Origin: PVC group bacterium
GTDB lineage: Bacteria; Verrucomicrobiota; Kiritimatiellia; UBA8416
DNA length: 64,000 nt
Direction: 5' to 3'
Assembly: GCA_003567005.1 (NCBI GenBank)
Contig: PXBF01000068.1
Location: 12,392-76,391, forward strand
Within the stretch, counting starts at the first letter, position 1, and each line of letters opens with the position of its first letter. The translations under genes and the position numbers were made by a program. Below the pieces are notes generated by a model. That model saw only the letters and a list, made by a program, of their open reading frames with translations. It did no database searches and was not told where the DNA came from. Of this stretch, positions 9,631-64,000 are shown in pieces.

Positions 9631-11613
9631 CTACGTATACTGGAATATGATCATACGTTCTACAAGTGCGGGATCCGCACCGAACAGAATTTGCAATACA
9701 GGTACAAGCGTCCAGAATGCATTCGCAAAAATTTCACCAAAAATAATTCCCAGAAAAAATGGAATGCCAGCCCGATAGGCTCGATTCCCTCCATAACGCA
9801 AGATGAGCGACTTGATCAACCAACCGAAAAAGAGACTAACCACCAATCGTAAACCGATAGATGAATAAACAAAAAGTAAGCCAACAGGGTGTAGCGGCCA
9901 AGACGGAAACCGTGCACATAACATCAGCAATACGGTTGCAAAGATCGCACCACCTACCATAATTCGGAATGTTTCGGCATTGAAACTTCTTTCACGTCCA
10001 CTCAGAAGCTGGCGAATCGGCTCTATGCCCATCATCTCGGCACCACGACCGGCAACAGGCACGTTGACTCCATCGAGTGATGAATAATGATGATACCCCA
10101 TATGAAGATGGACGGCACCACACACAAGAAATCCAAGCACCAACACGCCAAGCCCGAGCCATGCCAGCCGAACCTTATGCCTCGTTGGACTATTCACATG
10201 CAATCCCAAAGCCAGCATCGCCATAACGGCGGCACTCACGGCAGAAGCCCGATTGGCAATAACATAATGCGCTCTTTGCATAAATACAATTGCCGGGTCA
10301 AACCAACGGCTGGGAAACAACCCAAAGATGCGATAGGCAGTCAGCGGAATAATCCAAATATAGGTAATCCCTGTTTCAGCAACGACACGAGCAACCATGA
10401 TCATAATGACGATCGCAAGAAAAAGCAATGCGGCAGCAGCAACCCAACCCATGCCAGCCCAGATAAACCAGATAAACATACCCAGCGCACCCAAAACAAA
10501 AAGGCGCACGGCAAGCTTGCCATCCCTATCAACCGAATCATCCCGCTTCAGACCGAAAGCCGATAAGAACAACTGACCATACGTGTGGCGACCTAACCAA
10601 ATCACCCAAACCGACATGGCAATAAAGGCACCACTGGTCTGATCATATATTGTTGCCGGTCTAAACAACGGAAGATAGCTCCTTGCAAACATCAGAAATA
10701 TCCCATAGCCGAAAATGGCAAACCAAATCGAAAAGCTATAGCGGTTGGGCATAAAATAAGCTAAACCGATAAAAAGGAAATAGAGACGCGATCCCCTGAG
10801 AAATCCGGGCGCATGCATCCAGATGCCATCGGTAAACAAATAGGATATATCCCACTGCAAAGGAAAGGCCGGAAAAGCACCTTGCGTGAAAATCGCGAGC
10901 CCATTCGTTGAATGTAAAAAGAACACAGCACCACACCCGATCCAAAAAGAGCGCGAGGTAAAGAGCTGACTCCAGCGCCCCCCATCCTCCGGCCGTTCCG
11001 CAATCGCCCGATAAATGCGTAATAAGGGAAACGCCAGCCGTTCATGATGCAACCACTGCGGCAAAACCATGAAACCAAGGCCAATCATTAAAACCCAAAA
11101 TGCTACGATGAGCACGCCCCAGGAAAACATCGGTCGTACCCAAGCAGTCCAAGGTATGACATCTCCTGGGAACAACTCCCCTAAAAAACCATCGATAACG
11201 GGCGTATCCTGCTCTGGACCAATTGCATCGGGAAATAACGCAGCGGGAAGTCGAGAGTCGGCAACTGCCTCGGCAATCGTCGCATGCTCATTTATATGCC
11301 GGTTGGCCATAGCCAGGCTGTGTGGGAAAAAGCGCATGAGCCCATTGCTTGGGACCACAGCAGCAAACAAGAGTATGCTGATGATCAGGATGAGTTGCGA
11401 CTGGTTCAGGGTAAGGCTATCGGAAACGCGCTGTAGCAAAGGATTGACCAGAAGCACCAACACAACAATCAGAAACATCACGATTTCAGGTAAATACCCA
11501 TCACTAACGAAACTGTTGTTCAGCAAGAAATTGTTATAAGGCACGAGTAGCCAAATCAGAACAGACAGGAATAAGCCTATCGAAAGTGCGACTATAGCTC
11601 GTATCGTCGTCAT
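9631..11613 (-). CDS. Large polytopic integral membrane protein, function unknown
   Basis: 660 aa with at least 12 hydrophobic helices, Trp/Phe-rich. A 42-nt gap separates it from the upstream PDZ/HEAT gene on the same strand. Confidence 0.55.
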   Translation of the reverse strand: MTTIRAIVALSIGLFLSVLIWLLVPYNNFLLNNSFVSDGYLPEIVMFLIVVLVLLVNPLLQRVSDSLTLNQSQLILIISILLFAAVVPSNGLMRFFPHSLAMANRHINEHATIAEAVADSRLPAALFPDAIGPEQDTPVIDGFLGELFPGDVIPWTAWVRPMFSWGVLIVAFWVLMIGLGFMVLPQWLHHERLAFPLLRIYRAIAERPEDGGRWSQLFTSRSFWIGCGAVFFLHSTNGLAIFTQGAFPAFPLQWDISYLFTDGIWMHAPGFLRGSRLYFLFIGLAYFMPNRYSFSIWFAIFGYGIFLMFARSYLPLFRPATIYDQTSGAFIAMSVWVIWLGRHTYGQLFLSAFGLKRDDSVDRDGKLAVRLFVLGALGMFIWFIWAGMGWVAAAALLFLAIVIMIMVARVVAETGITYIWIIPLTAYRIFGLFPSRWFDPAIVFMQRAHYVIANRASAVSAAVMAMLALGLHVNSPTRHKVRLAWLGLGVLVLGFLVCGAVHLHMGYHHYSSLDGVNVPVAGRGAEMMGIEPIRQLLSGRERSFNAETFRIMVGGAIFATVLLMLCARFPSWPLHPVGLLFVYSSIGLRLVVSLFFGWLIKSLILRYGGNRAYRAGIPFFLGIIFGEIFANAFWTLVPVLQILFGADPALVERMIIFQYT

Positions 11614-11655
11614 GCCTCTCCTTATCCTTATGCGCAGCCCACGTCGTGAGCCAGT

Positions 11656-14289
11656 TTATTCCATCACATCTGCCAATGGGATCATTTCGCGTTCTATCTC
11701 TGATTCACGAATGGATGCAATGATCGCAGCGGCATCTTCTTCCCCGAATTTCTCCCTGATCATAGGTATGATTTCCTCCGCTTCGCGACCAAATGAGCGT
11801 ATAAGCCGTGTCCGATTGCGAATGCGTGGCCCCGGTCGCCCAGTCGGTTCGTGTATCGTTTCCAAGGCCAGCGTGAGCACCTCTTCTATCTGCAAACGAT
11901 TCATCAGATCCAAACCTCCCTGCCGGGGGCCATCTCCGTGATATAGCGTATAGGTCAGGTCCTCATCCCGGATTACATGGATAACGGTATCGGCTACACG
12001 ATGAAAATCTTCCAACGGCATGTTTTGCAGGAGCCGCATCCCCGCATTCCGAGCCCACATATGCGGATGATCGAGCAACCGAAGAATGCCTGCATAAAAC
12101 AGATCCCCATCCAGATCGTGCGCGAACGGATCCGGTTGCAGCATGGTCACCAGCGTCTGCCCAATTGCCCGATCAAGATCCTGGAACGCGTCATAAGGCT
12201 TTTCACGTAAAAGCAGGTGCATCAGTTCTTCCAGATAGATCTTTTTCGTATCCACCTGTGCAAGCTCCCTGATCGCGAGTTGACGAACCCATAAATCCTC
12301 CGACTCGTCCCGTATGATCGCCATCAACGTTTCCAGCGTACCCTCGACCCTGCCATTTTGCAGGGCATGCAATGCGCCGATGCGCTGTTCCCGACTCCCT
12401 TCAAGAAGGATGGTAAGCAGAGATTCCCCCACCTCCGCCTCTTGCTCCACCAACGCGCCGGCCGCCTCCAACCGAACGGGAGGCAACGTATGACCAAGAA
12501 GCTCAATCAATGCAGCAGTAGCCATCTCGGTATCCGGAACCGGGCGTTCCACCGCAGCAAGGGCTGCATCCCCCCTGAGCCAGAGGCCTTCGTCCATTCC
12601 CTTGCCTGTGATATGCAAAACGCGACGCCCAGACGCCATGTTCAGCAAGTTAGGTCCTGTTGAATGCAAATCTCTGTACTGGAAAATATCGCCGCGCTGT
12701 TCCATATGCAAGAACCGGCCATCCCATGTGCGGCTGAACGTTCGTAGCCAGCCTATTTGCCGTTCATAGGCGGCCCACACATCAGGCCCTAAAACATTCG
12801 CGCCAAGTCCAGACCAGAAATAGTTGAAAAAAGGCCCTGTATGCCCCGTGAATATTTCAGGATGCGAGGCCGCCGATAACTGCCCATAGAACCGTGCTGC
12901 ATCGGCATCCCCTAACAACGCAAAACCAACCGCAACGCTGCCACTGGTTCCGTTGCTGGTGAGAATGTGTTCCATGGGGGCATGATTGCCATAGGGTAAT
13001 GCTCCACGACCCGCCCAGTTCCCATATAATGCGCGCGTCTTATCGATAGCTGTACGAATCACGGGATCATCTACCCCGCACTTCTCCGCCAGAATCAAGC
13101 CAATCCACAATACGGCTGAGGTCTGATTGATCGCACCGTAGCCATAAAGCCGTGCATTATAGTGACCGCGATTGGCTTCCGGATTTGCCATGCGATGATT
13201 CCAAAGACCGGCAACATCCTGCCCATGCGCAATCGTGCGCGCATAGGTGCGTATCGCCGGCAGTACATATTCATCACCCGTCAACAGGTAATATTCGCAC
13301 AACGTAATCAAGCGATAAGACCAAGCCCAACTGACCATCGGCGTGGCCAAGGAAAGTTCAAGGTCCGGACGTGCAAAATCTGCTTCGCGTAAACGCGCAC
13401 CGACATATTCAATGTACGTTTCGTTGCCCGTCGCAAGCAGCCCCAGTAACTCGATGTTCATGCGATCATCCTTACCGGTTTCCACAATGATGTCAGCCGC
13501 CCGGGTTATCAGGGCATCGACTTTCGGACAATCTGCAGGGCTCGTTATACTACGGGATCCGAGAGCCGGAAGCCGCAACGTCTTCTCAAAGGATTCCGGT
13601 GCCTCATCCTCTAACGCAGGACGTAAGACACGGAGATTCAATTGCCCGTTTTGCGCCTCGCTCTCTGCCAACTCGATTTGATCGGCAAACAACTGATACA
13701 AATCGCCCCTCACCGGCTTGCCGCCAATCGCCACAATACGATCCCCTACCGCAAGAATCCCATCCGCGGGAGAACCATCCTTGATGCGGGTGATCTCGAC
13801 ATGATCTGCGTACATGGACGCAAAAATTCCTATGGGACCGAAATGCTGGATGGTGCCCGGCGGCGCTGGCAAATGCATGTGCACACTGAAAACCGACTCA
13901 TCCCCGCCCGCTTCTCCCGGCCGCGCAAACGTTAAACGGAGGCGTCCGTCGTTTTCCCGCCACAACCGCAGCATGTGCCTGCGCATCATCGATGAGAGGT
14001 CATTCGCCAATCCACTCCCCTGCACCCGTATCAGTCGATCTCCGGGAAGCGCGCGCCCGTCAAGAGGGCTTTTTGGCTTTACACCTGTTACCAGAACATA
14101 GCCATCTTCGACGGTCCCGATTAAGCCCGTTATGGATAACCGATATTCTTGCCCAGCATCATACGGCCCGCCTTCTGACAAGTCAGGCAAATCACTTGCT
14201 ACTGCGCGAACCATGGAAAGCAAAAAACACAACATACATAAAACAATGTTACGTCGGATATCGGCAAGTACTGTCATAATCATATGCAC
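11656..14289 (-). CDS. Secreted multidomain protein: two PDZ domains, a central all-alpha domain and C-terminal HEAT/armadillo-like repeats
   Basis: Signal peptide. PDZ-like segments GLIGTVEDGYVLVTGVKPKSPLDGRALPGDRLIRVQG and ITRIKDGSPADGILAVGDRIVAIGG. HEAT-like EQRIGALHALQNGR...DLWVRQLAIRELAQV. Confidence 0.55.
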   Translation of the reverse strand: MHMIMTVLADIRRNIVLCMLCFLLSMVRAVASDLPDLSEGGPYDAGQEYRLSITGLIGTVEDGYVLVTGVKPKSPLDGRALPGDRLIRVQGSGLANDLSSMMRRHMLRLWRENDGRLRLTFARPGEAGGDESVFSVHMHLPAPPGTIQHFGPIGIFASMYADHVEITRIKDGSPADGILAVGDRIVAIGGKPVRGDLYQLFADQIELAESEAQNGQLNLRVLRPALEDEAPESFEKTLRLPALGSRSITSPADCPKVDALITRAADIIVETGKDDRMNIELLGLLATGNETYIEYVGARLREADFARPDLELSLATPMVSWAWSYRLITLCEYYLLTGDEYVLPAIRTYARTIAHGQDVAGLWNHRMANPEANRGHYNARLYGYGAINQTSAVLWIGLILAEKCGVDDPVIRTAIDKTRALYGNWAGRGALPYGNHAPMEHILTSNGTSGSVAVGFALLGDADAARFYGQLSAASHPEIFTGHTGPFFNYFWSGLGANVLGPDVWAAYERQIGWLRTFSRTWDGRFLHMEQRGDIFQYRDLHSTGPNLLNMASGRRVLHITGKGMDEGLWLRGDAALAAVERPVPDTEMATAALIELLGHTLPPVRLEAAGALVEQEAEVGESLLTILLEGSREQRIGALHALQNGRVEGTLETLMAIIRDESEDLWVRQLAIRELAQVDTKKIYLEELMHLLLREKPYDAFQDLDRAIGQTLVTMLQPDPFAHDLDGDLFYAGILRLLDHPHMWARNAGMRLLQNMPLEDFHRVADTVIHVIRDEDLTYTLYHGDGPRQGGLDLMNRLQIEEVLTLALETIHEPTGRPGPRIRNRTRLIRSFGREAEEIIPMIREKFGEEDAAAIIASIRESEIEREMIPLADVME

Positions 14290-14417
14290 TTTCTCTCATG
14301 GTACAGCATTCTACAGGATGCACGAAATTGGCATTTGCAACGGACGTACAAGTACCATTTGAGAGACACTACCAGATGAAATGCGTAATAACAAGAATTG
14401 CGATACAATATACGCTA

Positions 14418-38784: not shown

Positions 38785-39222
38785 ATGCTTACCGTTCATG
38801 CCGCAGGGATAGATACCGATAAGGTTGCACAGCAAATCAAAGCGCAGGCAGCCAAACGACATACGTCTGCCAAACTTACGATGGAACGCTTATCGAATAG
38901 CAAAATACAGTCTCCGGATGGATTTGCCAACAATACAGCTTTCATCGAGGCGTTGCTCGCTACCCTCCACGATACTGCATTTGTTGATATTAGCGACTTT
39001 GAGATCGTGGAACGACGGCAACGCTGGAGCTTGCCCCTTATTGCGCTAAAAAAATGCATCTGGAGTATGCTCCGTTTCTACACCTATCGCCTCTGGTCCC
39101 AACAAAATGAAATTAATGGATTTCTGTTGGCGGCCTTGCAAGGCATCCATGAAGACAGCAGCGAACGGATCAATGCGCTGGAAGAGAGAATCACAGAATT
39201 GGAATCGAAGCGCGACCAATGA
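38785..39222 (+). CDS. Hypothetical protein with a coiled-coil C-terminus
   Basis: 145 aa. No recognised motif. C-terminal heptad-like RINALEERITELESKRDQ. Its stop overlaps the next ORF by 4 nt. Confidence 0.4.
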   Translation: MLTVHAAGIDTDKVAQQIKAQAAKRHTSAKLTMERLSNSKIQSPDGFANNTAFIEALLATLHDTAFVDISDFEIVERRQRWSLPLIALKKCIWSMLRFYTYRLWSQQNEINGFLLAALQGIHEDSSERINALEERITELESKRDQ

Positions 39223-40121
39223 CGAATGTGTATGGAGCGCTGACATGTGTAGACCCTAAGCTATTGATGTACGAAACGTTGCGAACCCTACCCAAATGCA
39301 ATAAGATCATACACATGAAGGCAAAACAGAAAACGAAATGGCGACTCGATCGCGCACGCTTGGTCTTTGCAAGCATCTTGATCATCCTATCACTATGTGC
39401 GAATCTCGGCATTGCACGCGAAACGGGTGATCACAACCTCCCGCCCCTCTCTTACCGAACATGGACTAGCGAAGCTGGACAAACACTCGAAGCCGCTTTC
39501 ATCCATCTGCATCAGAACCAAGTTGTTCTCAAAGATCGCGAAGAGCAGCGTATCGCGATTCCAATTAATCGTTTGAGCTGGCGCGATCAAATCATGGCCC
39601 GTAGATTATCCGGATTACGCGGCACGGAGCCATTGTCCAGCGGAAGACGTGCAGTAACCCAAAGGCGACGCGCAGCCGATGCAAAAGTCATCGCTGCCTT
39701 CGGATCCGATTGCGAACCACTCCTGATCGATGCGATACAAGATGCGCGGCGCGAAATCCTGGTCGCCATTTACACGATGACGAGTCTGCCCATAGCCGAA
39801 GCCCTGCGCGAGGCCGCACAACGCGGTGTCGATATTCACATAAAATATGACAAAGGCCAAATCGAGGTGGGACGCATGTCTGAAATCATCGAAAGCCTTG
39901 AACCGGAACGCAACATCACCATAACCCCTATAGAAATGAGCGGACGTTTTGCATCGATGCATCACAAATTCGCGGTCATGGATCAGGCGGTCGTATTCAC
40001 AGGGTCATTCAACTTTACCGTGACAGCGGCAACGCAAAGCTATGAAAATGCCGTCGTTATCTATTCCGACAGCATTGCACAACGCTATACGCAGGAATTC
40101 GAATCCATTGAAAGTCGCTAA
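39219..40121 (+). CDS. Secreted or membrane-anchored SHD1-domain protein with a C-terminal PLD-family (HKD) Nuc-like nuclease/phosphodiesterase domain; alternative start 39315
   Basis: Signal/TM LVFASILIILSLCANLGIA. SLA1-homology SHD1 motif RTWTSEAGQTLEAAFIHLHQNQVVLKDREEQRIAIPINRLSWRDQ. Single HKD motif MHHKFAVMD...GSFNFT. Confidence 0.7.
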   Translation: MTNVYGALTCVDPKLLMYETLRTLPKCNKIIHMKAKQKTKWRLDRARLVFASILIILSLCANLGIARETGDHNLPPLSYRTWTSEAGQTLEAAFIHLHQNQVVLKDREEQRIAIPINRLSWRDQIMARRLSGLRGTEPLSSGRRAVTQRRRAADAKVIAAFGSDCEPLLIDAIQDARREILVAIYTMTSLPIAEALREAAQRGVDIHIKYDKGQIEVGRMSEIIESLEPERNITITPIEMSGRFASMHHKFAVMDQAVVFTGSFNFTVTAATQSYENAVVIYSDSIAQRYTQEFESIESR

Positions 40122-55934: not shown

Positions 55935-56198
55935 CTAACCTAATGGCAATTCGTCGGCATCCGGTGTGTCGCCATGCGGAAAGGACTCCGTTTCTACAGG
56001 CCCCTCCTTGGTTAGAAGCTTCTCAATCTTACGTTCAACTTCATCAAGTTTTCCCGAACAGAATTTGATCAACTTCTGTCCCTCCTCAAACCGGGCAATC
56101 ATATCGTCCAAACTTAATTCGCCACTTTCCATACCAGCGACAATCTCTTCCAGACGTGCCAATGACTTTTCAAAAGACACATTCTTTTCATTGCTCAT
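55935..56198 (-). CDS. xseB: Exodeoxyribonuclease VII small subunit
   Basis: SFEKSLARLEEIVAGMESGELSLDDMIARFEEGQKLIKFC is a textbook XseB helix-hairpin. 87 aa. Sits 3 nt downstream of xseA. Confidence 0.8.
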   Translation of the reverse strand: MSNEKNVSFEKSLARLEEIVAGMESGELSLDDMIARFEEGQKLIKFCSGKLDEVERKIEKLLTKEGPVETESFPHGDTPDADELPLG

Positions 56199-56201
56199 AC
56201 C

Positions 56202-57557
56202 CTATCCTTTCTCCTTGCCCTCTACAACACGCGCCAATACTTCGCCTTTCGCCAATCGCGTCCGTACATGATCACCCGCTCTAACAGCAGAAGCGTCCCG
56301 CAAGATCGTTCCATCATCCAGTCGCGTAACCGAATATCCACGTTGCAAAACAGCTAAAGGATTCAGTGCCCGGAGTTGCAACGTCAAACGTTGCACCTCT
56401 TGTGTCGCACGCTGCTGCCGTAATCGTAACGCCTGCTCCATATGGCGCGAAGAAGTCTCGAGCCCCTGACGTCCTGCTTGCATAGCCGAACGACTGCGCT
56501 GCTGCAAGGTACTGCTGACCCAATCCAATGATTGCTGCGCCGACTGCATACTTCCGCGTAATTCACGACGCATGCGCTGATCCACAGTATCCATGCGTTC
56601 CCGATACCGCGCGACGGCATTGCTGGGCTCCCGAAATACATAGTGCTGTGCGGAACGCGTCAAACGATGTTTTGCCCGCTCCAGCACATGCTGCATGCAC
56701 CCCTCCAAGCGCCGACCGTATTCCGCAAGCATATCCGTAAAGGCATCTTTACGACCAACCACCAATTCTGCTGCCGCCGATGGCGTAGGAGCGCGCACAT
56801 CTGCCACGAAATCACAAATAGTAAAATCGATTTCATGTCCAACAGCAGAAATAACGGGAATCTGCGAACGATCAACAGCCCGAGCAACCACCTCCTCATT
56901 GAACGACCACAAATCCTCCAAACTGCCGCCACCCCGACCAACAATCAGAACATCCAAACCGCCAATTTCATTCAACCGTCCGATCGCTGCGGCCACTTCC
57001 TCTGCAGCACCATCGCCTTGCACCTTTACGGGCGCTAGTAATACATGAAGATTGGGGAAACGACGGGTCACAACGTTCAAAATATCGCGAATAGCCGCCC
57101 CCGTTGCAGATGTAACCACCCCTACATGCTGAGGAAGCAAGGGTAAGGGCTTTTTGCGCGATGCCGCAAAAAGCCCTTCCTCTGCCAATCGTTTCTTCAA
57201 AGCTTCAAACTGCGCTTGCAGGGAACCTTTTCCGCCAGGTTCCATGCGGCGAATTAAAATCTGATAATTGCCGCGTTTTTCATATACGGTAATTTCACCA
57301 AAAGCACGTACTACATCGCCACTTTTGGGGGTAAACCCCAGCCCCCGCTGACTCCCCTTGAACATGACAGCCTGAATTTGCGCCCCTTCATCCTTGATCG
57401 TAAAATACATGTGCCCTGAGGCAGGACGCGCCAAGTTGGAAATTTCCCCCTCGACCCCGACAGCACCGAATCCTCTCTCAAGCGTCCCCTTGATCCGGCG
57501 TGTCAACTCGCTGACACTCCATATTGAATCATTTCTCTCCATCAAACCTTTGCTCAC
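56202..57557 (-). CDS. xseA: Exodeoxyribonuclease VII large subunit
   Basis: N-terminal OB-fold WSVSELTRRIKGTLE...VEGEISN...GHMYFTLKD-like. Catalytic region GRGGGSLEDLWSFNEE. 451 aa. Confidence 0.85.
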   Translation of the reverse strand: MSKGLMERNDSIWSVSELTRRIKGTLERGFGAVGVEGEISNLARPASGHMYFTIKDEGAQIQAVMFKGSQRGLGFTPKSGDVVRAFGEITVYEKRGNYQILIRRMEPGGKGSLQAQFEALKKRLAEEGLFAASRKKPLPLLPQHVGVVTSATGAAIRDILNVVTRRFPNLHVLLAPVKVQGDGAAEEVAAAIGRLNEIGGLDVLIVGRGGGSLEDLWSFNEEVVARAVDRSQIPVISAVGHEIDFTICDFVADVRAPTPSAAAELVVGRKDAFTDMLAEYGRRLEGCMQHVLERAKHRLTRSAQHYVFREPSNAVARYRERMDTVDQRMRRELRGSMQSAQQSLDWVSSTLQQRSRSAMQAGRQGLETSSRHMEQALRLRQQRATQEVQRLTLQLRALNPLAVLQRGYSVTRLDDGTILRDASAVRAGDHVRTRLAKGEVLARVVEGKEKG

Positions 57558-57698: not shown

Positions 57699-58229
57699 CT
57701 ACAAATTCTTCTTCTCGAAGAATACAAAGACGCCAAGCACAAGACACCAGAACGCCACCACGACAAACCAAGGATTCAGCCCAACCATTTCTGGAACCCC
57801 CAAGTTACCAAAATCTTTCCAAGCCATCACAGTGCGCGAAAGCCAAGGATAAAGTTCAGCAAAAACGGCAGCCCCGATCACCATTCCGATAACGGCAAAT
57901 ATAGCATGCCATCGGCCTTCCCCAATCGCCCCCATAGAGGTTCCCGGACAATAGCCCATGATCGCCCAACCAATACCGAAAAGCAAACCGCCGATGATTA
58001 CAGCCCCCATGTTCATGGGTTTGTGACTGAAAGAGTCTATCACGCCAAGTTCAACAAGGAGATGCAAACCCACACTACCAACGATAATGGCTGACAACAT
58101 GAACTTGAGAATCGTCATATCTTTCAGCAACATCGCACCCAGTTGCTTCTCATAGCGAAGCACACGCCCCTTCTGCAACAAAAACCCAAAAATCACACCT
58201 GTAACCAATCCTAGAATCAGCCTATCCAT
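57699..58229 (-). CDS. YeeE/YedE-family (DUF395) sulfur-compound transporter half
   Basis: Conserved GYCPG motif (AIMGYCPGTSMGA). 4 TM. Internal start MDRLILG chosen. Confidence 0.7.
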   Translation of the reverse strand: MDRLILGLVTGVIFGFLLQKGRVLRYEKQLGAMLLKDMTILKFMLSAIIVGSVGLHLLVELGVIDSFSHKPMNMGAVIIGGLLFGIGWAIMGYCPGTSMGAIGEGRWHAIFAVIGMVIGAAVFAELYPWLSRTVMAWKDFGNLGVPEMVGLNPWFVVVAFWCLVLGVFVFFEKKNL

Positions 58230-58773
58230 GACGTTTCCCTCCTTTGAATACGAGTTGTGCAACGACTACACCTGTACCGAAGAAAAAGGCCAACGCCACA
58301 AAACCGCTTACGGAAAGCTGCATCAGGCCACTTAGACCATGACCACTTGGACATCCATCGGCTAACCGTGCACCGATCATGGCAATCATACCGCCGAGCA
58401 CTGCGCCGACCGCACGTACGCCTATAGAAGATCCAAAGCGATCACGCCAAATAGGGGGTGAGGATTCAGTCTCAAAACTGCGATCTGTCAAAGATGCCAG
58501 CAAGGCCCCAATCAAGATTCCGATTACAATCATGTACTGCCAATCAATCTGCGGCGGGGTTTGCTGATAATAAGGGTTCGCCGCCACACGATCGGGCAAA
58601 ATGGCACGATGGACATAACCCGCTGCCCGCACGAACGTAGTCGAAGCCCCCAGAAAACTGGTCTGCCCAGTTATTCCGGTCGTTGCCCAAGCCGAACCCA
58701 CTGCAAGTAACCCTACGAGTGCACCTGCCAGATAGGGACTCCAGCCGCCACCTTCCTGCTTCCATTTCATCAT
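58222..58773 (-). CDS. YeeE/YedE-family (DUF395) sulfur-compound transporter half
   Basis: Conserved GCPSGHG motif (LADGCPSGHGLSG). 4 TM. 8-nt overlap with the downstream half gene. Confidence 0.7.
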   Translation of the reverse strand: MMKWKQEGGGWSPYLAGALVGLLAVGSAWATTGITGQTSFLGASTTFVRAAGYVHRAILPDRVAANPYYQQTPPQIDWQYMIVIGILIGALLASLTDRSFETESSPPIWRDRFGSSIGVRAVGAVLGGMIAMIGARLADGCPSGHGLSGLMQLSVSGFVALAFFFGTGVVVAQLVFKGGKRHG

Positions 58774-58972: not shown

Positions 58973-58996
58973 AGAACGCAATTGTTTTATGGTACG

Positions 58997-61900
58997 CTAA
59001 AGTCCAATGGCAACATCGGATACCGTCTCATCAAGACCGCCCTGTGTGCGATTCCGTTGCGCTTGCGTATCGATCTGATACGTCGCACCATCGGACGTAA
59101 TGTAGATGGCCTGATCGCGATCGGTGCTCCATACGCGGACTCCATAATCTATATAGAATCGCCGGGTTACCCCGAACCGATCGAGTGCATCGCGCCCCTC
59201 GCGTCCCAGTACGGGACGTGGGTTACCGAACTCCAGAATGATATCTTCTGGTTCCACGGCAGCAAGCAATACCCCCGTCGAATCCTGTAATACACTGCGC
59301 ATACGCTGTACATTTCCTTGAACCGTGGGAGGAAAAGGCGCAGCCGCTTGATAAGGCGCAACCAATATATTTGCGCGTATATGGGCTGGATCCGCTGACA
59401 TAGCAAAATCGCGCTGCGCTTCGAGTTCCATCGCGCCAGGTAGTAGCATGGAAAATGCGCCATATAAAATGCGTACTTGCATCGAACGTGTATACCATGG
59501 GCCCTGCTCTGGCAGAACGGAGACCACTTCAATACGAAATATTCCCCCATCATGCTCTTCCTCAACCAGTACCGTCGGCTCTTCCACAGGCGTTGCCATC
59601 AGATTCCACGAAGCCCAACGGTTAAACCATGTGCCCTCTCGCTTGTGTAAGCGCTCCAACACAGATGGGCGTTGCGGCCATTGCGGATCCCCTGCCCAAA
59701 CAGAAAAGATGTCATCCGCGCGCGGGTGAGAATGATTTTCACGATCAATACTAGTAATTTCCGATCGTTCAAATGGTAAAATCAGGCTTTTTATACGCTG
59801 ATGCATCAGGATATAGGATAAACCGCCCGCTCGTTCTGGACGTGGGGATGAGGCTATGAACATATCCAGTTTGCCAATACGTTGATGCGAAAAGGTCGGC
59901 AAGATCGTTCGCATGGCCTCATTGCGCCGCCCCCGTTCATACTCCACAAACCCACTATCTATTAAATAATGCGCACCACCAGGACTCTGAACATGAATAG
60001 CACTACCATACCCCACCGGCAAAACGGTTACCTCCAAGGGATCTGAGCTATCAGAACGCCACGGTGTACCACCCCTCACGAGCAGGAGTAAGAAACCGAC
60101 CATAGCAATACCATAGGGGATCCAACGCTTGGGACCCTTCCATGAAACACCAAGTTTTCCGAGCAGTCGGGATCCATATCTTTGCACGGGATCCGGCCAA
60201 ACCAGCAGGGCAAGTACGCCGTAATAAAAGAGAAGCGCATAACCGGATGGACGCGGAACAAAAGGATGCGGGAACACGCGTGCAAAAACATAGGCCAACC
60301 ATAGGAACAAACTCGCCGCCAACCAATTCGCGGCATTCAGGAACAAGGCCAGAAGTGGCCCCAGCCCCGGAATCAACCCCAATAGGCCAGCGAGCACGCC
60401 AAGCTGTACCACCACGCCGATAAGCGGGATCGCAATCAGATTCGCATACATCCCCCCAAATGGCCACTGATTGAAATAATAGGCCGATAACGGAATCATC
60501 ATGCCGATTTGAATCGCAATCTGCGCGGCCATAAAGGTACCGATACTCTCTGGAATACGAGTAAAGCGGAATCGGGAATCTATGCCGATTCCTGTACGAT
60601 CACAGGCTCTCGCCACCCAAAAAACCAGCCCCCAAAACATGCTCCATGGTATCCAGAATTGCGCGGTTGTGACCAAAGCCCAGCGGATCGCGGCAAACAG
60701 GGTTGTCAGAACCGTGCATAGGATAACGGATGCAAAACAATTACCGCGCAACCGGCATAATTGCGCATAAATCGGTCCCGTCAACAAGGCCAGTGACAAA
60801 ATGGCACCAAAGGAAAGCGTAAACGATGGATCGACAACGACGAGCGGATTATGAACCAAAATCAGCGCTGCGGCGATTGGAACACCGGTTAATACGGATG
60901 AGCGTAACCCTTTATCCAGATAGGCCCATGTCAACAAAAAGAGGCTATTCATAATAACAGCCCGAAGTGTGGAAGGCCGCGCACCCGTTATGATCGCAAA
61001 TATAACCAATACGCCAATAACCACAGGCACAAACACTTGGCGGGGAAATTTGATCAAAGAAAAGATTGCAACAAACATAACCGTCAGAATCGTCACATGC
61101 AGACCGGAAACGGCCAGAACATGATTCACCCCGGAGGCACGGAAATCCGATACGATCTGCGCCTCGCTAGGGGCCAGACCAAATCGCTGCATCCAACCCG
61201 GACCTTCCCCGGGAAACATCACACCATGTAATCCATAACGTAAGCCAAGCGTTACACCGCCTAGAAAGGCGGACTGCGGATACGGCATGGTTGCCTTGAA
61301 GATACCCAGCATGCGATCACGTAGCCCTAAAGAAAATGCCACCAGTGGGTTCCCACTTCGTTGTGGCTGCCCCGTAGGAGCCAATAAAGACACTGGAGAC
61401 GGCTCTCTTGGGCGCGCATAGGGTCGCATAACCGCATAGATATTATGGTTTTGCATGAAACGGCGCGCGTCAAAACCACCTTCTACCGATGGACCACGCG
61501 CAACGGTCAATTCGCCCCGTATCACTATATCAGCCCCATAGGCTTCTGTTTGCGCCAAACGCGTAAAATTCTCGAGATTCGGATGTACCGTAACCTGAAT
61601 ATCCCCACCTTCCACACGATAGTATGGACCGCCAGCGGGATACTGAATGTAAGCAGGTTCGACCGTAAGAACGCTCTTGAAGTCATACACATTGGGATCC
61701 TGCGCAATGCGCCCTAACACGGTTACGTCAGACTGGCCGCGAGCAGGTCGGACAAAAGACCCGATATGATTAGATAAGCGAAAAACCGTCAGCGGTAGAT
61801 CCGCATCACCAACATCCCACAGTACATCATCTATACGACTAAACGGTTGATCCACACGAAACGTGGCACCTGCAGGTGTATGCGCCGGAATGTCCACTGT

Positions 61901-62386
61901 AGCACTCTTGATGGGCATCCTGTGCTCGTTAAACACCCAGCGTCCCGCTTCATCCAGCAAAGGATTTTCATCATAATCTAACACAGCTTGACGTGCTACG
62001 AGTTCGCCGGCAAAACGAAAACCTACCGCTTCCTCCACATCCGCATCTACACGGACAATCAGTCGGCTCGTATCGCGAAGTGGTTCGCGTTCAATATAGC
62101 GGCCATTTTCTATCTGCCCGATGCGCCGATCTGGAACACGATACGCAACCGAATAACGTGTGTATCCAACAAGAACAGCCAAAACCACAAGAACATACCA
62201 TAACGTGAGATTCCACAGATTGCCTTTGGAACGCCAACCCAACCAGATGGCCAAGACAAGAGTGACACCCAGACCTGTCAGAATCCAATAGCGCGTTGCA
62301 TGCGATAGCACCTCAACCGGAAGAAGCATGGCTAGGATAAGCCCGCCAATAAACAAGTAACAGGTAGTGATCAGCTTAGTGTTCAT
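58997..62386 (-). CDS. comEC: ComEC/Rec2-family DNA internalisation channel protein with a degenerate (pseudo) metallo-beta-lactamase domain
   Basis: Competence-domain hallmark GVNHVLAVSGLHVTIL. N-terminal DUF4131-like region. C-terminal MBL-like region (aa 784-1105) with motif 1 VLPVGYGSAIHV..YLIDSG, but the HxDxDH position reads SSPRPERAGG. 1129 aa. Confidence 0.75.
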   Translation of the reverse strand: MNTKLITTCYLFIGGLILAMLLPVEVLSHATRYWILTGLGVTLVLAIWLGWRSKGNLWNLTLWYVLVVLAVLVGYTRYSVAYRVPDRRIGQIENGRYIEREPLRDTSRLIVRVDADVEEAVGFRFAGELVARQAVLDYDENPLLDEAGRWVFNEHRMPIKSATVDIPAHTPAGATFRVDQPFSRIDDVLWDVGDADLPLTVFRLSNHIGSFVRPARGQSDVTVLGRIAQDPNVYDFKSVLTVEPAYIQYPAGGPYYRVEGGDIQVTVHPNLENFTRLAQTEAYGADIVIRGELTVARGPSVEGGFDARRFMQNHNIYAVMRPYARPREPSPVSLLAPTGQPQRSGNPLVAFSLGLRDRMLGIFKATMPYPQSAFLGGVTLGLRYGLHGVMFPGEGPGWMQRFGLAPSEAQIVSDFRASGVNHVLAVSGLHVTILTVMFVAIFSLIKFPRQVFVPVVIGVLVIFAIITGARPSTLRAVIMNSLFLLTWAYLDKGLRSSVLTGVPIAAALILVHNPLVVVDPSFTLSFGAILSLALLTGPIYAQLCRLRGNCFASVILCTVLTTLFAAIRWALVTTAQFWIPWSMFWGLVFWVARACDRTGIGIDSRFRFTRIPESIGTFMAAQIAIQIGMMIPLSAYYFNQWPFGGMYANLIAIPLIGVVVQLGVLAGLLGLIPGLGPLLALFLNAANWLAASLFLWLAYVFARVFPHPFVPRPSGYALLFYYGVLALLVWPDPVQRYGSRLLGKLGVSWKGPKRWIPYGIAMVGFLLLLVRGGTPWRSDSSDPLEVTVLPVGYGSAIHVQSPGGAHYLIDSGFVEYERGRRNEAMRTILPTFSHQRIGKLDMFIASSPRPERAGGLSYILMHQRIKSLILPFERSEITSIDRENHSHPRADDIFSVWAGDPQWPQRPSVLERLHKREGTWFNRWASWNLMATPVEEPTVLVEEEHDGGIFRIEVVSVLPEQGPWYTRSMQVRILYGAFSMLLPGAMELEAQRDFAMSADPAHIRANILVAPYQAAAPFPPTVQGNVQRMRSVLQDSTGVLLAAVEPEDIILEFGNPRPVLGREGRDALDRFGVTRRFYIDYGVRVWSTDRDQAIYITSDGATYQIDTQAQRNRTQGGLDETVSDVAIGL

Positions 62387-62576
62387 CCCCGCCTTCCTCC
62401 CAACCGGTTTCCGGATAATAGGCCCGATTGGATTCCCAAATGGGCCCTGCCGTTATGTCCCCGGATGCCCAAGCCCGAACAGTACCACGGTAATCAGGAT
62501 GCAAGAATAGAACCACACCACCAATCACGAGCGCCCCAGCAAGAATATATAGTAAAAGGCGTACACCGCGCTCCAT
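62376..62576 (-). CDS. Mini membrane protein (single TM helix)
   Basis: 66 aa, MERGVRLLLYILAGALVIGGVVLFL. Overlaps the comEC start by 11 nt. Translational coupling suggests it is real. Confidence 0.4.
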   Translation of the reverse strand: MERGVRLLLYILAGALVIGGVVLFLHPDYRGTVRAWASGDITAGPIWESNRAYYPETGWEEGGDEH

Positions 62577-62579
62577 ACA

Positions 62580-62789
62580 TCATCCCTTTCGACCCGGCTC
62601 TTCCGGATCCTTCACACGTAATAGCGTAATAAAAATAAAAGCAAAGGGTACAAATGGAAAAAAATACAGAATACCTTCACGCGTATGAAAAACCCGCACA
62701 GACCCAGATGCCAACCAGAGTAAATAGAGCAACATTCCCACAGCATTACAAATCAGAATACAGGTCCGGATGATATCACGCTCCATCAT
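62580..62789 (-). CDS. Mini membrane protein (two TM helices)
   Basis: 69 aa, MMERDIIRTCILICNAVGMLLYLLWL...FFPFVPFAFIFITLL. Its start overlaps the NERD gene stop by 4 nt. Confidence 0.4.
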   Translation of the reverse strand: MMERDIIRTCILICNAVGMLLYLLWLASGSVRVFHTREGILYFFPFVPFAFIFITLLRVKDPEEPGRKG

Positions 62790-63541
62790 GACATCTCCAG
62801 AAACATATGTAAAACAGCATCAACGGTATCCTCCGATAAAGCAGCCGGTAAACGGTGTGTCGCAATAAAACGCGCTGCAGAATCTGGCTGCAAGATAGGA
62901 ACAGGCGCATCCGCTATGCTCACTTTCGTGTGTGGCGATCGAAAGACAATAAGAGGAATAACCGAAGCAGATGACAGACCGACATTTCGTAACATACCCC
63001 CCAGAATCTGACTACTACGCTGCACTTGCCGGATGGGATTCGGTACCCGCAACGGTTTGCTCCCACGTGTCTTTTCTTGCTCCCAATAGGGCTGATCGGC
63101 TACACCGGAAATCTGTCCCCGCCAGTTTTTTGTCTCAATCACAAAAATCCCATTGGGAGAGACAACGACATGGTCAAGTTGTGCGCGCTGCAAGCCACTC
63201 CGCACAATTTGATCATTGAAAATGTAGTGCGTGTTATCCAACGCGCGATCCAATGTGCGCGTAACGGTTGCTTCTCCCTGCAAACCGGCCTGAACATTGC
63301 CTGCCTCCTGTAGATTTTGCTGGATCCGCAAGCGGTGTGCATAACCAGCAACCAGCCCGATTACGCCAAGAATGAAAATACCGGGCGCACCAGCCACCAG
63401 CCAGCGCACCGCCCCCATCACAGTAACAAGAGCAGCAAGACCGAATTCAATGGGAACCCAGCGTTGCAAGGCGCGCGACTCCTGCAACATACGCTTATGT
63501 TTACGCGATAACGAGGTCTCTTCTGTAAGGATGCGCGCCAT
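62786..63541 (-). CDS. Membrane-anchored NERD (nuclease-related domain) protein
   Basis: Two N-terminal TM helices, then the NERD signature GEATVTRTLDRAL...IFNDQIV...QLDHVVVSPNGIFVIETKNWRG. Confidence 0.7.
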   Translation of the reverse strand: MARILTEETSLSRKHKRMLQESRALQRWVPIEFGLAALVTVMGAVRWLVAGAPGIFILGVIGLVAGYAHRLRIQQNLQEAGNVQAGLQGEATVTRTLDRALDNTHYIFNDQIVRSGLQRAQLDHVVVSPNGIFVIETKNWRGQISGVADQPYWEQEKTRGSKPLRVPNPIRQVQRSSQILGGMLRNVGLSSASVIPLIVFRSPHTKVSIADAPVPILQPDSAARFIATHRLPAALSEDTVDAVLHMFLEMS

Positions 63542-63543
63542 AT

Positions 63544-64000
63544 TTATCCCTCGGCATTCTCGGTACGCCCCAGATGCTCAACGACCTCAGCACGTGCGGC
63601 GCGCCGCAGACGCTCTGCAATACGGATCAAAACCCGATCTCCAACCTGCGTATCGGGCACAAATACAACGAGCCCATTAATGCGGGCAACCCCATCGTTT
63701 TGCGGATTACGGCGATCCCGTTCCACAATGGTAACGATGTATTCATCACCTACCGCAACGGTTTGTCCGGATCGCTCAGATGAAGCCGTTTCCCGCTCCG
63801 CTCGTGATGCTGGATCCGCACGGTCCAGCCAATCAACAACCACACCATCTGCCGCGCTACGCCGCAAACGCGTGATCTCAATAACAACCTCGTCTCCCAC
63901 AACCGTATCCGGCACAAAAACGATGAGACCATTGATGCGCGCGATACCGGCAACACCATCTCGTGATTGATCCCCAATGCGAACGCGATACCGACCGCCG
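63544..64000 (-). CDS. Tandem TRAM-domain protein, 5'-truncated by the window edge
   Basis: At least two repeats of the TRAM signature DGVARINGLVVFVPDTQVGDRVLIRI and GIARINGLIVFVPDTVVGDEVVIEI. The frame stays open to the window end. The ORF-track start at 63915 is a GTG inside a repeat. Confidence 0.55.
   Translation of the reverse strand, partial: GGRYRVRIGDQSRDGVAGIARINGLIVFVPDTVVGDEVVIEITRLRRSAADGVVVDWLDRADPASRAERETASSERSGQTVAVGDEYIVTIVERDRRNPQNDGVARINGLVVFVPDTQVGDRVLIRIAERLRRAARAEVVEHLGRTENAEG

Follow-up and report, generated by a model that had tools for sequence, protein, structure and literature searches.

Transforming DNA universally enters the cell by way of ComEC, whose metallo-beta-lactamase (MBL) domain was recently identified as the nuclease that degrades one strand and as essential for transformation in model species. 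In the domain of Moorella glycerini, the single substitutions H598A, D602A, H603A and D700A each virtually abolished nuclease activity, and the equivalent mutants of L. pneumophila were not transformable (PMC12455585). The ComEC of S. pneumoniae (CelB) keeps 2/7 ligands and is predicted to be inactive, the strand being degraded by EndA (PMC5031224), a separate membrane-bound nuclease (PMC5031224, PMC12455585). The ComEC of H. pylori is devoid of the MBL domain altogether (PMC5031224, PMC12455585), and yet H. pylori is transformable (PMC5031224). The concept of an outsourced nuclease is not new, S. pneumoniae ComEC/EndA being the textbook precedent (PMC5031224).

A ComEC gene of the class Kiritimatiellia, located in a stretch of 64,000 nucleotides (here called the window), was compared with these systems.

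Gene model and homology of the C-terminal domain

The gene and its C-terminal domain (CTD) were delimited as follows:

58997..62386, (-) strand: ComEC/Rec2 gene, 1129 aa (ORF)
59042..60040, (-) strand: degenerate MBL-fold domain, predicted pseudo-nuclease, aa ~783-1115 (phmmer, hhalign, HMM, AF2/Foldseek)

The protein is composed of N-terminal transmembrane helices, an enlarged OB-fold region, a Competence channel domain and the C-terminal degenerate MBL domain. Pfam Competence (PF03772) matched at E 1.5e-35 with 123 bits (cut-off 23), and DUF4131 (PF13567, N-terminal OB fold) at E 2.7e-09 with 37.4 bits (cut-off 31.6). The equivalog cut-off of NCBIfam TIGR00361 ComEC_Rec2 was missed (81.2 bits vs 190), the alignment being confined to the channel region. 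The full-length AF2 model (pLDDT 79, pTM 0.78) is beta-rich in aa 87-335, which resemble SSB OB folds and the ComEC OB domain 9iew, and its Foldseek comparison with a PDB copy lacking the solved full-length ComEC 30bt retrieved matches at domain level only (9ic4 and 9iew/SSB). Identity with the Kiritimatiellia orthologues was 45-54 % over the full length, and close relatives are annotated as 'ComEC/Rec2 family competence protein' in the source databases. The window ComEC is a divergent, long-form subfamily. The hydropathy count of its transmembrane helices is too crude for a full topology, and the putative outside location of the CTD was taken from homology. No Rfam match to structured RNAs was obtained in 55-64 kb, and the literature search on Kiritimatiellia ComEC returned nothing relevant.

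A genuine MBL domain of the ComEC type makes up the C-terminal ~335 aa. The phmmer search of the window ComEC against the PDB retrieved 9ic4_A (E 5e-17) and 30bt_A (E 1e-14). The hhalign comparison of the Kiritimatiellia family with 58 canonical ComEC MBL domains reached a probability of 100 % (E 6.3e-48, 273 columns), and a ComEC-specific MBL HMM matched the window domain at E 9.6e-34. The generic Lactamase_B model of Pfam and the NCBIfam models gave no match on the CTD, even at E<=10, and detection depended on the ComEC-specific profiles (hhalign and the ComEC-MBL HMM). The AF2 model of the CTD, built from only 19 sequences, had a pLDDT of 89.1, and its top Foldseek match in the PDB was 9ic4 (E 1e-20, TM 0.79-0.82). 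The initial annotation had proposed a profile alignment and a structural comparison as checks on its assignment; both identified the CTD as a ComEC MBL homologue with a preserved fold.

An error of sequencing or assembly, or the incipient decay of the ComEC gene into a pseudogene, would be in line with the silence of the generic models, with the low score against TIGR00361 and with a related contig in which the ComEC gene is split into three calls (L001). However, the 3390-nt ORF runs through without interruption, and the two other frames across 58990-60100 are stop-rich and hide no HxDxDH; there is therefore no frameshift. Two records, a JGI/IMG contig (P0003) and an NCBI contig (P0153), carry a 100 % identical CTD, which argues against sequencing error to the extent that they do not go back to the same underlying data, as they possibly do. 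Orthologues from independent MAGs, 21 in number, carry the same substitutions; conservation is strong at the clade-specific residues, and AF2 predicts the fold with confidence. Artefact or decay is effectively refuted by the orthologue comparison, and no trace was found of the sequencing error that had been named at the outset as a possible objection.

Metal-ligand positions, insertions and tail

The positions of the catalytic motifs were located by alignment:

60002..60016, (-) strand: VGYGS (aa 791-795) in place of canonical VGQGD, Asp replaced by S795
59831..59851, (-) strand: SSPRPER (aa 846-852) in place of motif 2, (T)HxH/DxDH; H replaced by S847, H/D by R849, D by E851 and H by R852
59432..59440, (-) strand: PGA (aa 983-985) at motif 4, bridging Asp (D700) replaced by A985
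59348..59356, (-) strand: PYQ (aa 1011-1013) at motif 5, HH (H725/H726) replaced by Y1012/Q1013

None of the conserved catalytic-site residues (Moorella numbering) was kept in the window ComEC (0/8): D546 corresponds to S795, H598 to S847, D600 to R849, D602 to E851, H603 to R852, D700 to A985, H725 to Y1012 and H726 to Q1013. Canonical ComEC MBLs have the motif-4 Asp in 58/58 sequences and the motif-5 His likewise in 58/58. The loss of all canonical metal ligands, as claimed in the initial annotation, was thus confirmed. At H598, D602, H603 and D700 the window protein has S, E, R and A. Because no ligand is kept and these positions are indispensable in the mutated homologue (PMC12455585), the domain is predicted to be catalytically dead, and the earlier prediction to this effect gains support from the homologue mutagenesis. 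D810, D841, E851, D1089 and D1091 are still conserved in the MBL domain.

The peptides on which that prediction had been based were all recovered at their places in ComEC: VLPVGYGSAIHVQSPGGAHYLIDSG at aa 788-812, HSHPRADD at 885-892, PGA at 983-985, PYQAAA at 1011-1016, NPRP at 1055-1058 and STDRDQAIYITSDG at 1087-1100. The motif-2 peptide, given as aa 841-855, was correct in sequence but one residue off at its start, as MFIASSPRPERAGG occupies aa 842-855 (nt 59822-59863). The reading of the TGD and HHGS positions as PGA and PYQAAA was borne out, but that of the GHP position as NPRP was in the wrong register: G1061-R1062-E1063 stands there instead. The His of GHP is variable among canonical ComECs, in which GFP, GCP and GQP occur.

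The altered motifs VGYGS and SP[R/L]PER were common to the Kiritimatiellia orthologues (n=21), with single positions conserved in 19-21/21 (Y793 21/21, S795 20/21, S847 21/21, E851 21/21, R852 19/21). This comparison with orthologues, also proposed beforehand, makes it clear that the substitutions extend to independent MAGs, and on the aligned sequences ligand loss is a trait of the whole class Kiritimatiellia. The motif-4 Asp was kept in 10/21 orthologues and is gone from the window protein and its nearer relatives. The first His of motif 5 was kept in all 21 other orthologues; only the window protein, the most degenerate of the Kiritimatiellia ComECs, has lost it. Also conserved in the clade are an ERGRRNE block, Arg and Trp residues in the insertions, the C-terminal tail and the replacement residues themselves. 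These clade-specific invariant residues, together with the confident AF2 fold from 19 sequences, indicate purifying selection on the domain.

Three further elements distinguish the CTD:

59612..59767, (-) strand: insertion 1, aa ~874-925, helical, containing the HSHPRADD loop (length comparison, hhalign gaps, secondary structure, conservation)
59267..59341, (-) strand: insertion 2, aa ~1016-1040, two helices past the former HHG motif, CTD 248-266 (length, hhalign gap, helices)
59000..59041, (-) strand: conserved disordered C-terminal tail ending in ETVSDVAIGL-COOH (orthologue alignment, pLDDT <50)

Instead of the single insertion of about 100 aa described initially, two insertions were found, of about 60 aa in total. 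Motifs 2 and 4 are separated by 132 aa in the window protein vs a canonical median of 96 (+36), and HHG and TD by 74 aa vs 49 (+25). The residues W903, R906, R916, N922 and W924 of insertion 1 are invariant in the clade. The suggestion that HSHPRADD provides alternative ligands did not hold, since H885, H887, D891 and D892 are unconserved in the 21 orthologues; as a metal site the peptide was rejected, being part of a variable loop of low model confidence in which the window protein has a 15-aa deletion. The tail, with the clade consensus DAVSD[LI]x[IV]G[LF], was found in 19/20 orthologues with the C-terminus present and also in the 19-sequence alignment, and its pLDDT was <50 in both the CTD-alone and the full-length models.

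A domain that is still a hydrolase, with a remodelled mononuclear or metal-independent site, for example around E851/R852 and other conserved acids, is very unlikely. All members of the clade have E851, the counterpart of D602, and roughly one orthologue in two combines it with the Asp of motif 4 and the His of motif 5, three 'site 2' ligand positions in all, so that residual mononuclear chemistry is conceivable in those relatives. In the window protein, however, that Asp and that His are also gone, and metal ions would be repelled by the Arg residues that occupy two of the former ligand positions. No His/Asp cluster lies nearby except the unconserved HSHPRADD, and the loss of H598, H603 or D700 alone is already inactivating in the Moorella homologue.

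Upstream gene cluster and fate of the non-transported strand

Four genes lie upstream of ComEC up to the window edge:

62376..62576, (-) strand: small2, 66-aa single-transmembrane microprotein with an acidic tail and an SNRAYYPE motif (sequence, conservation)
62580..62789, (-) strand: small1, 69-aa two-transmembrane microprotein, overlapping the NERD stop codon (sequence, conservation)
62786..63541, (-) strand: membrane-anchored NERD (PD-(D/E)xK) nuclease, 251 aa (Pfam NERD 4.7e-23)
63544..64000, (-) strand: 3' part of a TRAM-repeat gene with at least 2 TRAM repeats, running off the window edge (Pfam TRAM 2.8e-11, open ORF)

All genes of the TRAM-NERD-small1-small2-ComEC cluster have the same orientation and overlap or are closely spaced, and the cluster, with its TRAM-NERD-ComEC synteny, was conserved in 17/17 Kiritimatiellia loci with upstream sequence. 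The stop of small2 overlaps the ComEC start codon, and small2 is conserved in Kiritimatiellia loci; in Elusimicrobiota, Hydrogenedentota and locus L025, the start of ComEC is likewise overlapped by a small ORF of related sequence containing SN[RK]xY[YF]P. The small1 motif N[TA]xG..YLxWL...ERIxY..GVLYxLP..PFxFIF was found in loci L003, L008, L010, L012, L013, L019 and L020. Owing to these two small ORFs, the NERD gene is the third gene upstream of ComEC, and not the second as first annotated. Its catalytic motif QxDH...ETKNW (QLDH in the window) is conserved in 17/17 orthologues, and its two-transmembrane hairpin (aa 31-68) has a short loop, a basic C-flank and an N-flank with K+R = 7. By the positive-inside rule, the basic N-flank places the NERD domain in the cytoplasm, a predicted orientation derived from crude hydropathy and a positive-inside estimate. 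Orthologues of the TRAM-repeat protein have 261-418 aa, with an N-terminal transmembrane anchor in 5-6 of the 8 examined (those with a clean start call). From the synteny, the TRAM-repeat protein, NERD, the two microproteins and ComEC probably belong to a single machinery for DNA uptake. A defence-system reading of the NERD gene was discarded, as PADLOC gave only weak matches to the PglW NERD region and to MkoA (E 2.4e-4) and no system match.

Long ComECs of a similar form also occur in Hydrogenedentota and Elusimicrobiota. In Elusimicrobiota (P0064, locus L022) the long ComEC has 0/8 ligands, and the downstream gene, which overlaps it, encodes a secreted ComEC-type MBL with a fully intact catalytic site (E 2.5e-83). 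On these sequences, the cis domain can be dead with the activity supplied in trans. This locus resembles the window in its 0/8 ComEC, in a SNRxYFP transmembrane microprotein over the ComEC start and in a nuclease of the PD-(D/E)xK superfamily; it differs in the intact MBL immediately downstream, since Kiritimatiellia have none within +/-8 kb. A stand-alone MBL in locus L025 was rejected as a second in-trans example because it is itself degenerate (VPYSHH, THGG). Related degenerate long ComECs adjoin ComEA-like HHH_3 genes and a secretin, which embeds this type of ComEC in DNA-uptake clusters.

The initial annotation had suggested that strand degradation may have been outsourced to the NERD nuclease or to a secreted PLD nuclease at 39.2 kb. 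That the co-operonic, membrane-anchored NERD protein takes over from the MBL domain and breaks down the non-transported strand at the mouth of the channel is favoured by its position, by the synteny across the class and by the intact D...ETK motif of all orthologues, and a further PD-(D/E)xK-family nuclease (PDDEXK_1) adjoins the dead-MBL ComEC in Elusimicrobiota. However, the site of action of the ComEC MBL lies outside the membrane (PMC12455585), and a cytoplasmic NERD domain would be on the wrong side for this task. In Elusimicrobiota the replacement in trans is the secreted MBL and not the PD-(D/E)xK protein, and no report linking NERD with ComEC or competence was found in the literature. 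This form of outsourcing is accordingly considered improbable. Degradation by a soluble or secreted nuclease whose gene lies elsewhere (PLD, or a stand-alone MBL or EndA-like protein outside the window), or simple displacement of the strand, as must occur in H. pylori, is a genuine but tentative possibility. The PLD/Nuc-like gene (39219-40121) has an intact HxKx4D...GSxN and, following an internal Met, a segment resembling a signal peptide, and its product is therefore probably secreted, as had been proposed; but it lies 19 kb from ComEC, and it was rejected as a linked partner since no homologue occurs in any of the 25 ComEC loci. The secreted canonical ComEC-type MBL of Elusimicrobiota, many short stand-alone ComEC-type MBL proteins among the database matches and the transformability of H. 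pylori without the domain favour a supply from elsewhere or simple displacement, whereas neither the window nor the +/-8 kb examined in 20 Kiritimatiellia loci contains a stand-alone MBL. No EndA-type gene is present nearby in the window.

Proposed role and comparison with known systems

The preferred reading, to which a probability of about 0.8 is given, is that the ComEC CTD is a pseudo-nuclease that would have arisen from a Mn2+/Zn2+-dependent MBL by stepwise ligand loss and would have been retained, likely as a scaffold or DNA-guiding cap with a docking function. The CTD would keep its alpha-beta/beta-alpha fold and presumably its place beside the OB fold, on the external side of the DNA channel, and without the binuclear metal site it should be unable to cut DNA. 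In the Kiritimatiellia ancestor, motif 2 would have changed to S-P-[R/L]-P-E-R and VGQGD to VGYGS; later, the bridging Asp (D700) would have been lost in part of the class and, in the window lineage alone, the motif-5 His as well. The most likely role of the CTD is that of a scaffold or DNA-guiding channel cap and partner docking platform, and the non-transported strand, if degraded at all, would be handled by another protein.

A broader proposal, for which the odds are low, is that the long-form, dead-MBL ComECs constitute a distinct, undescribed DNA-uptake module with a coupled SN[RK]xY[YF]P microprotein, a TRAM receptor and a cytoplasmic NERD. Kiritimatiellia would possess such a module, and Elusimicrobiota, Hydrogenedentota and relatives would have similar versions of it. 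The membrane-anchored TRAM-repeat protein would act as a ComEA-like DNA receptor, the microprotein would be translationally coupled to ComEC, and NERD would stand on the cytoplasmic face. If true, DNA processing would move from the periplasmic channel entrance to the cytoplasmic exit, in keeping with DNA that is first imported and then cleaved in the cytoplasm, either as a nutrient or in a new form of strand handling.

For the pseudo-nuclease reading, a class with a retained and fully inactivated domain points to a second, non-catalytic role worth preserving, for which scaffold, DNA guide and docking are the candidates. The graded ligand loss across the class offers a natural separation-of-function series, and Elusimicrobiota a natural split, while the TRAM/NERD/microprotein cluster nominates possible new DNA-uptake components in the poorly studied PVC superphylum.

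With canonical ComEC MBL domains (Moorella 9IC4; B. subtilis, L. pneumophila) the window domain shares the fold, the C-terminal position and the non-catalytic motifs P802, LIDxG, LD841, GGL and RTD..GA...SDG; it differs in that all catalytic and metal residues are replaced, in its extra residues and in being invisible to Lactamase_B. The isolated canonical domain (BLACT) shows no DNA binding. Like H. pylori and the ComECs of 'DC'/'C' profile, it has no predicted functional nuclease in cis, but the H. pylori ComEC ends before the domain, whereas the window domain is present and cryptic. In Pfam surveys the window protein would score as 'DUF4131+Competence' only (PMC6299819). Some of the reported Lactamase_B losses may thus be degenerate domains, and surveys that score such losses will miss cryptic domains of this kind.

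The closest likeness is to S. pneumoniae ComEC/EndA, in which a full-length MBL fold has most of its ligands non-conservatively replaced and is predicted to be inactive. The window protein differs from it in keeping 0/8 residues instead of 2/7, in a trait fixed across a class of the PVC superphylum, in the two clade-specific insertions and the conserved C-terminal tail and, in a diderm organism, in the conserved TRAM/NERD/two-microprotein cluster in place of a nearby EndA-type gene. Given the S. pneumoniae precedent of an inactive ComEC MBL with the nuclease elsewhere, the present finding extends a known theme and does not open a new one.

The ComEC gene and its C-terminal domain

Positions 59072-60037 fall within one uninterrupted open reading frame on the minus strand, which was characterized as follows:

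58997..62386 (-): ComEC, 1129 aa
aa 205-323: DUF4131 (OB fold), Pfam E 2.7e-09
aa 410-588: Competence channel domain, Pfam E 1.5e-35

Neither the whole ComEC nor its last 352 aa taken alone gave a Pfam match to Lactamase_B at thresholds up to E<=10, and the protein reached 81 bits against the NCBIfam ComEC equivalog TIGR00361 (cut-off 190). This failure to detect the C-terminal domain is confined to the generic Pfam model; an HMM built from canonical ComEC metallo-beta-lactamase (MBL) domains detected it in the window ORF with an E value of 9.6e-34. In phmmer searches against PDB sequences, the C-terminal region matched 9ic4_A, the crystal structure of the Moorella glycerini ComEC beta-lactamase-like domain (E 5e-17), and 30bt_A, an 801-residue chain deposited as ComEC (E 1e-14). 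The profile alignment (hhalign) of the 19-member family against 58 canonical ComEC MBL domains gave a probability of 100 % (E 6.3e-48, 273 columns). The AlphaFold2 model of the domain, built from a 19-sequence alignment (pLDDT 89.1, pTM 0.89), had 9ic4 as its best PDB match in Foldseek (E 1e-20, TM 0.79 normalised to the target) and phosphorylcholine esterase Pce as the second; among known structures, Pce is also reported to resemble the Moorella domain most closely (PMC12455585). In the full-length model (pLDDT 79, pTM 0.78) the domain matched 9ic4 again (TM 0.82), and the N-terminal beta-rich region matched SSB-type OB folds and the ComEC OB domain 9iew. Sequence, profile and structure-model comparisons agree with the initial annotation that this is a genuine ComEC MBL domain.

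The extracytoplasmic N-terminal region (61150-62160 (-), aa ~76-412) is enlarged to roughly double a canonical DUF4131 OB fold. Many additional beta-strands are present between aa 87 and 335, though the Pfam match covers only aa 205-323, and a low-confidence loop of ~43 residues (aa 367-409) precedes the channel domain.

The peptides quoted in the initial annotation were all recovered at the positions given, the sole slip being the start of MFIASSPRPERAGG, whose sequence is correct and whose true span is aa 842-855, not 841-855. A sequencing artefact is very unlikely as the cause of the substitutions, since an exhaustive HMMER search found the C-terminal domain 100 % identical in P0003 (a protein from a JGI/IMG contig) and the complete 1129-aa ComEC is also present on an NCBI contig of 171,793 bp, records which may derive from the same data. 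Against an error masking intact ligands stand this identity and the other two frames across 58990-60100, which are stop-rich and hide no HxDxDH.

Loss of the catalytic centre and its distribution

Residues were mapped with the Moorella numbering (PMC12455585), transferred through sequence alignments.

Table. Catalytic-site positions in Moorella ComEC and the corresponding residues of the window protein
D546 (VGQGD): S795
H598 (motif 2): S847
D600 (motif 2): R849
D602 (motif 2, general base): E851
H603 (motif 2): R852
D700 (motif 4, bridging Asp): A985
H725 (motif 5, PHHGS): Y1012
H726 (motif 5, PHHGS): Q1013

The window protein keeps 0/8 of these positions, and Arg occupies two former ligand positions. 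In the canonical set D700, H725 and H726 are each present in 58/58 sequences, the invariance of motif 2 there being circular, as the set was selected by this motif. The Moorella mutants H598A, D602A, H603A and D700A are virtually inactive, activity of D600A is down about five-fold, and L. pneumophila mutants at equivalent residues are non-transformable (PMC12455585). Since homologues mutated at equivalent positions are inactive, the window domain bears several singly inactivating changes; the prediction of a catalytically dead domain that has lost its metal ligands, made in the initial annotation, is well supported. Its reading of NPRP as the GHP position did not hold: the true equivalent is G1061-R1062-E1063, and the clade-conserved FGNPRPVLG pairs with the 'sxGxxN' block of canonical sequences. 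The His of GHP varies even among canonical ComECs (GFP, GCP, GQP, KHP).

Instead of the single insertion of ~100 aa described initially, extra sequence was found in two places, both helical in the AlphaFold2 model. Motifs 2 and 4 are 132 aa apart versus a canonical median of 96 (+36; +40 to +55 aa in most relatives), and 74 aa separate HHG from the TD motif versus 49 (+25). W903, R906, R916, N922 and W924 in the first insertion are clade-invariant; elsewhere in the domain ERGRRNE (817-823), R826, R852, R1057 and R1065 are invariant or almost so. The suggestion that HSHPRADD might supply alternative ligands was not borne out, as H885, H887, D891 and D892 are each unconserved in 21 orthologues; this stretch, where the window carries a 15-aa deletion and pLDDT is ~58, is predicted to form no alternative metal site.

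A word-indexed search returned two relatives only; an exhaustive search recovered a family of long-form ComECs (1090-1170 aa, ~30 representatives), in all of which the HxH/DxDH motif is absent. The scan for related loci sampled each species by a single genome and yielded 20 loci, with identities to the window protein of 37-45 % (C-terminal domain) and 44-54 % (whole protein); 19 of them belong to MAGs named Kiritimatiellae, Kiritimatiellia or Verrucomicrobia/Verrucomicrobiota. These matches make Kiritimatiellota the most likely origin of the window, in keeping with its gene content (a sulfatase, a GH2 enzyme, glycosyltransferases, a TonB receptor).

The substitutions are shared by orthologues, as follows:

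VGYG[SR] replacing VGQGD: all 21 Kiritimatiellia orthologues; VGYGS in the window
S-P-[R/L/H]-[P/A]-E-[R/E/H] replacing motif 2: all 21; SPRPER in the window
Motif-4 Asp: kept in 10, absent from 11 (the window's nearer relatives) and from the window
First motif-5 His: kept in 21/21; absent from the window (PYQA)

These counts suggest that motifs 1b and 2 would have been lost first, in the class ancestor, then motif 4 and then motif 5, the window protein representing the end point (0/8). Long ComECs with comparable degeneration were also identified in one MAG each of Hydrogenedentota (P0039, 1/8) and Elusimicrobiota (P0064, 0/8). Because the replacement residues are themselves conserved, the fold is modelled confidently from few sequences and the ComEC ORF is intact in all genomes, sequence and model together argue for a constrained pseudo-enzyme domain and not for decay.

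The conserved ComEC tail (59000-59041 (-), aa 1116-1129; ...ETVSDVAIGL-COOH in the window) follows the clade consensus DAVSD[LI]x[IV]G[LF]-COOH in 19/20 orthologues with the C-terminus present. It is disordered in both AlphaFold2 models and looks like a docking peptide (PDZ-like or beta-augmentation) for a partner.

Gene neighbourhood and candidate substitute nucleases

The following genes precede ComEC on the same strand:

63544 to beyond 64000 (-): TRAM-domain gene, off the window edge, at least two repeats visible
62786-63541 (-): NERD protein, Pfam E 4.7e-23
62580-62789 (-): small1, 69 aa, two TM helices, between NERD and small2, overlapping the NERD stop codon
62376-62576 (-): small2, 66 aa, a single TM helix and an acidic tail containing SNRAYYPE; stop codon overlapping the ComEC ATG

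The order TRAM-repeat, NERD, small1, small2, ComEC was found in 17/17 related loci with upstream sequence. On the downstream side, where the window has a split YeeE/YedE pair, XseA/XseB and PdxH, gene content is not conserved among these loci. Together this is strong evidence, from synteny, that the five genes are functionally linked. The YeeE/YedE pair (57699-58773 (-)) consists of overlapping ORFs of 183 and 187 aa, matching the C- and N-terminal halves of Sulf_transp, respectively, and represents a transporter split either naturally or by a frameshift. XseA/XseB (exonuclease VII large and small subunits, 55935-57557 (-)) is encoded in the same orientation a short way downstream of ComEC, an adjacency that is probably coincidental since it is not conserved in related loci. 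Unrelated to ComEC is an uncharacterised pair, a large DUF6288 protein with PDZ and HEAT regions (11656-14289 (-)) and the adjoining DUF6785/DUF6784 membrane protein (9631-11613 (-)).

All NERD orthologues keep the PD-(D/E)xK signature QxDH...ETKNW. At their N-terminus is a conserved basic stretch (MARILTxETSLxRK..., K+R = 7), after which come two hydrophobic helices with a short loop between; by the positive-inside rule, a crude topology estimate, the nuclease domain is probably cytoplasmic. The MBL and OB domains of ComEC act on the outer face of the membrane (PMC12455585), so NERD is doubtful as a substitute degrading the non-transported strand. In the PLD-family protein (39219-40121 (+)) the HxKx4D/GSxN motif is intact. 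No homologue of it was found in the 25 ComEC loci examined, so there is nothing to connect it with ComEC. It is a single-HKD, Nuc-like protein with an SHD1-like region; internal Met33 precedes a basic n-region and a hydrophobic signal-peptide-like segment, and the annotated ATG is probably too far upstream. A search of the window and of +/-8 kb around ComEC in 20 Kiritimatiellia loci found no stand-alone MBL.

Other lineages offer a natural control. In the Elusimicrobiota loci L022 (MAG contig, JGI 3300009838) and L023, a small TM ORF ending ...SNRSYFPSVW precedes the 0/8 ComEC and overlaps its start. Directly after ComEC in L022, with stop and start overlapping, a 464-aa signal-peptide protein (10982-12376) is a canonical ComEC-type MBL (VGQGD, HPHMDH, GD, HHGS; E 2.5e-83 with the canonical ComEC-MBL HMM), adjoined by a 655-aa double PDDEXK_1 nuclease with Cys clusters (12373-14340). 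A dead cis domain with a predicted active trans copy exists in nature, to judge from these motifs, and the pair supports a scaffold role for the dead domain and outsourcing generally. The stand-alone MBL also carries a long low-complexity Pro/Ser/Lys-rich tail with repeated 'VQVDLG'-like units.

In L024 (Hydrogenedentota) and L025, NDK and a small ORF (SN[RK]xxxFYP or SNRNYFP) precede the degenerate ComEC and ComEA-like HHH_3 proteins follow it; L025 also encodes a secretin fused to a ComEA-like HHH_3 (1-1722) in the same cluster. With these genes adjoining, both ComECs appear embedded in DNA-uptake gene sets. The stand-alone ComEC-type MBL of L025 (11825-12865) was rejected as an intact copy, being itself degenerate (VPYSHH, THGG). 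The outsourcing of strand degradation proposed initially is thus partly supported, as a general idea by the Elusimicrobiota trans MBL and for NERD by synteny; the side of the membrane predicted for NERD and the lack of linkage between PLD and ComEC speak against it.

TRAM-repeat orthologues carry a single N-terminal TM anchor (5-6/8 examined, those with a clean start call); those of L003, L004, L007, L008, L012 and L015 have ~260-420 aa, with 2-3 TRAM repeats behind the anchor. Gram-positive ComEA has the same architecture, with a single N-terminal membrane anchor, and by this likeness the TRAM-repeat protein may be a DNA receptor. The small1 motif N[TA]xG..YLxWL..ERIxY..GVLYxLP..PFxFIF was seen only in Kiritimatiellia loci. 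Small2-type microproteins (51-69 aa, single TM, C-terminal SN[RK]xY[YF]P) stand directly upstream of long degenerate-MBL ComECs in four phylum-level lineages: Kiritimatiellia (window 62376-62576 (-)), Elusimicrobiota (L022, 7798-8007), Hydrogenedentota (L024, 710-892) and that of L025 (7849-8004). The ORF overlaps the ComEC start in three lineages and ends 2 nt before it in L024; it is covered by no Pfam family and may encode a ComEC accessory subunit.

Comparison with known ComEC proteins

No literature was found on Kiritimatiellia ComEC, or linking NERD to ComEC or competence, and the TRAM-repeat/NERD/two-microprotein cluster is apparently undescribed. Pimentel & Zhang 2018 classed ComECs by Pfam domains (PMC6299819); in that scheme the window protein would be 'DUF4131+Competence', with Lactamase_B counted as lost despite the fold being present. 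The H. pylori ComEC is without an MBL domain altogether (PMC5031224; PMC12455585). The S. pneumoniae ComEC has a full-length MBL domain keeping 2/7 ligand positions (Baker et al. 2016, PMC5031224), and strand degradation is carried out by EndA (PMC5031224; PMC12455585). Compared with the pneumococcal ComEC, the window type is more extreme, a class-wide predicted pseudo-nuclease, and the Kiritimatiellia form is set apart by insertions of its own, the conserved C-terminal tail and the TRAM/NERD/two-microprotein cluster.
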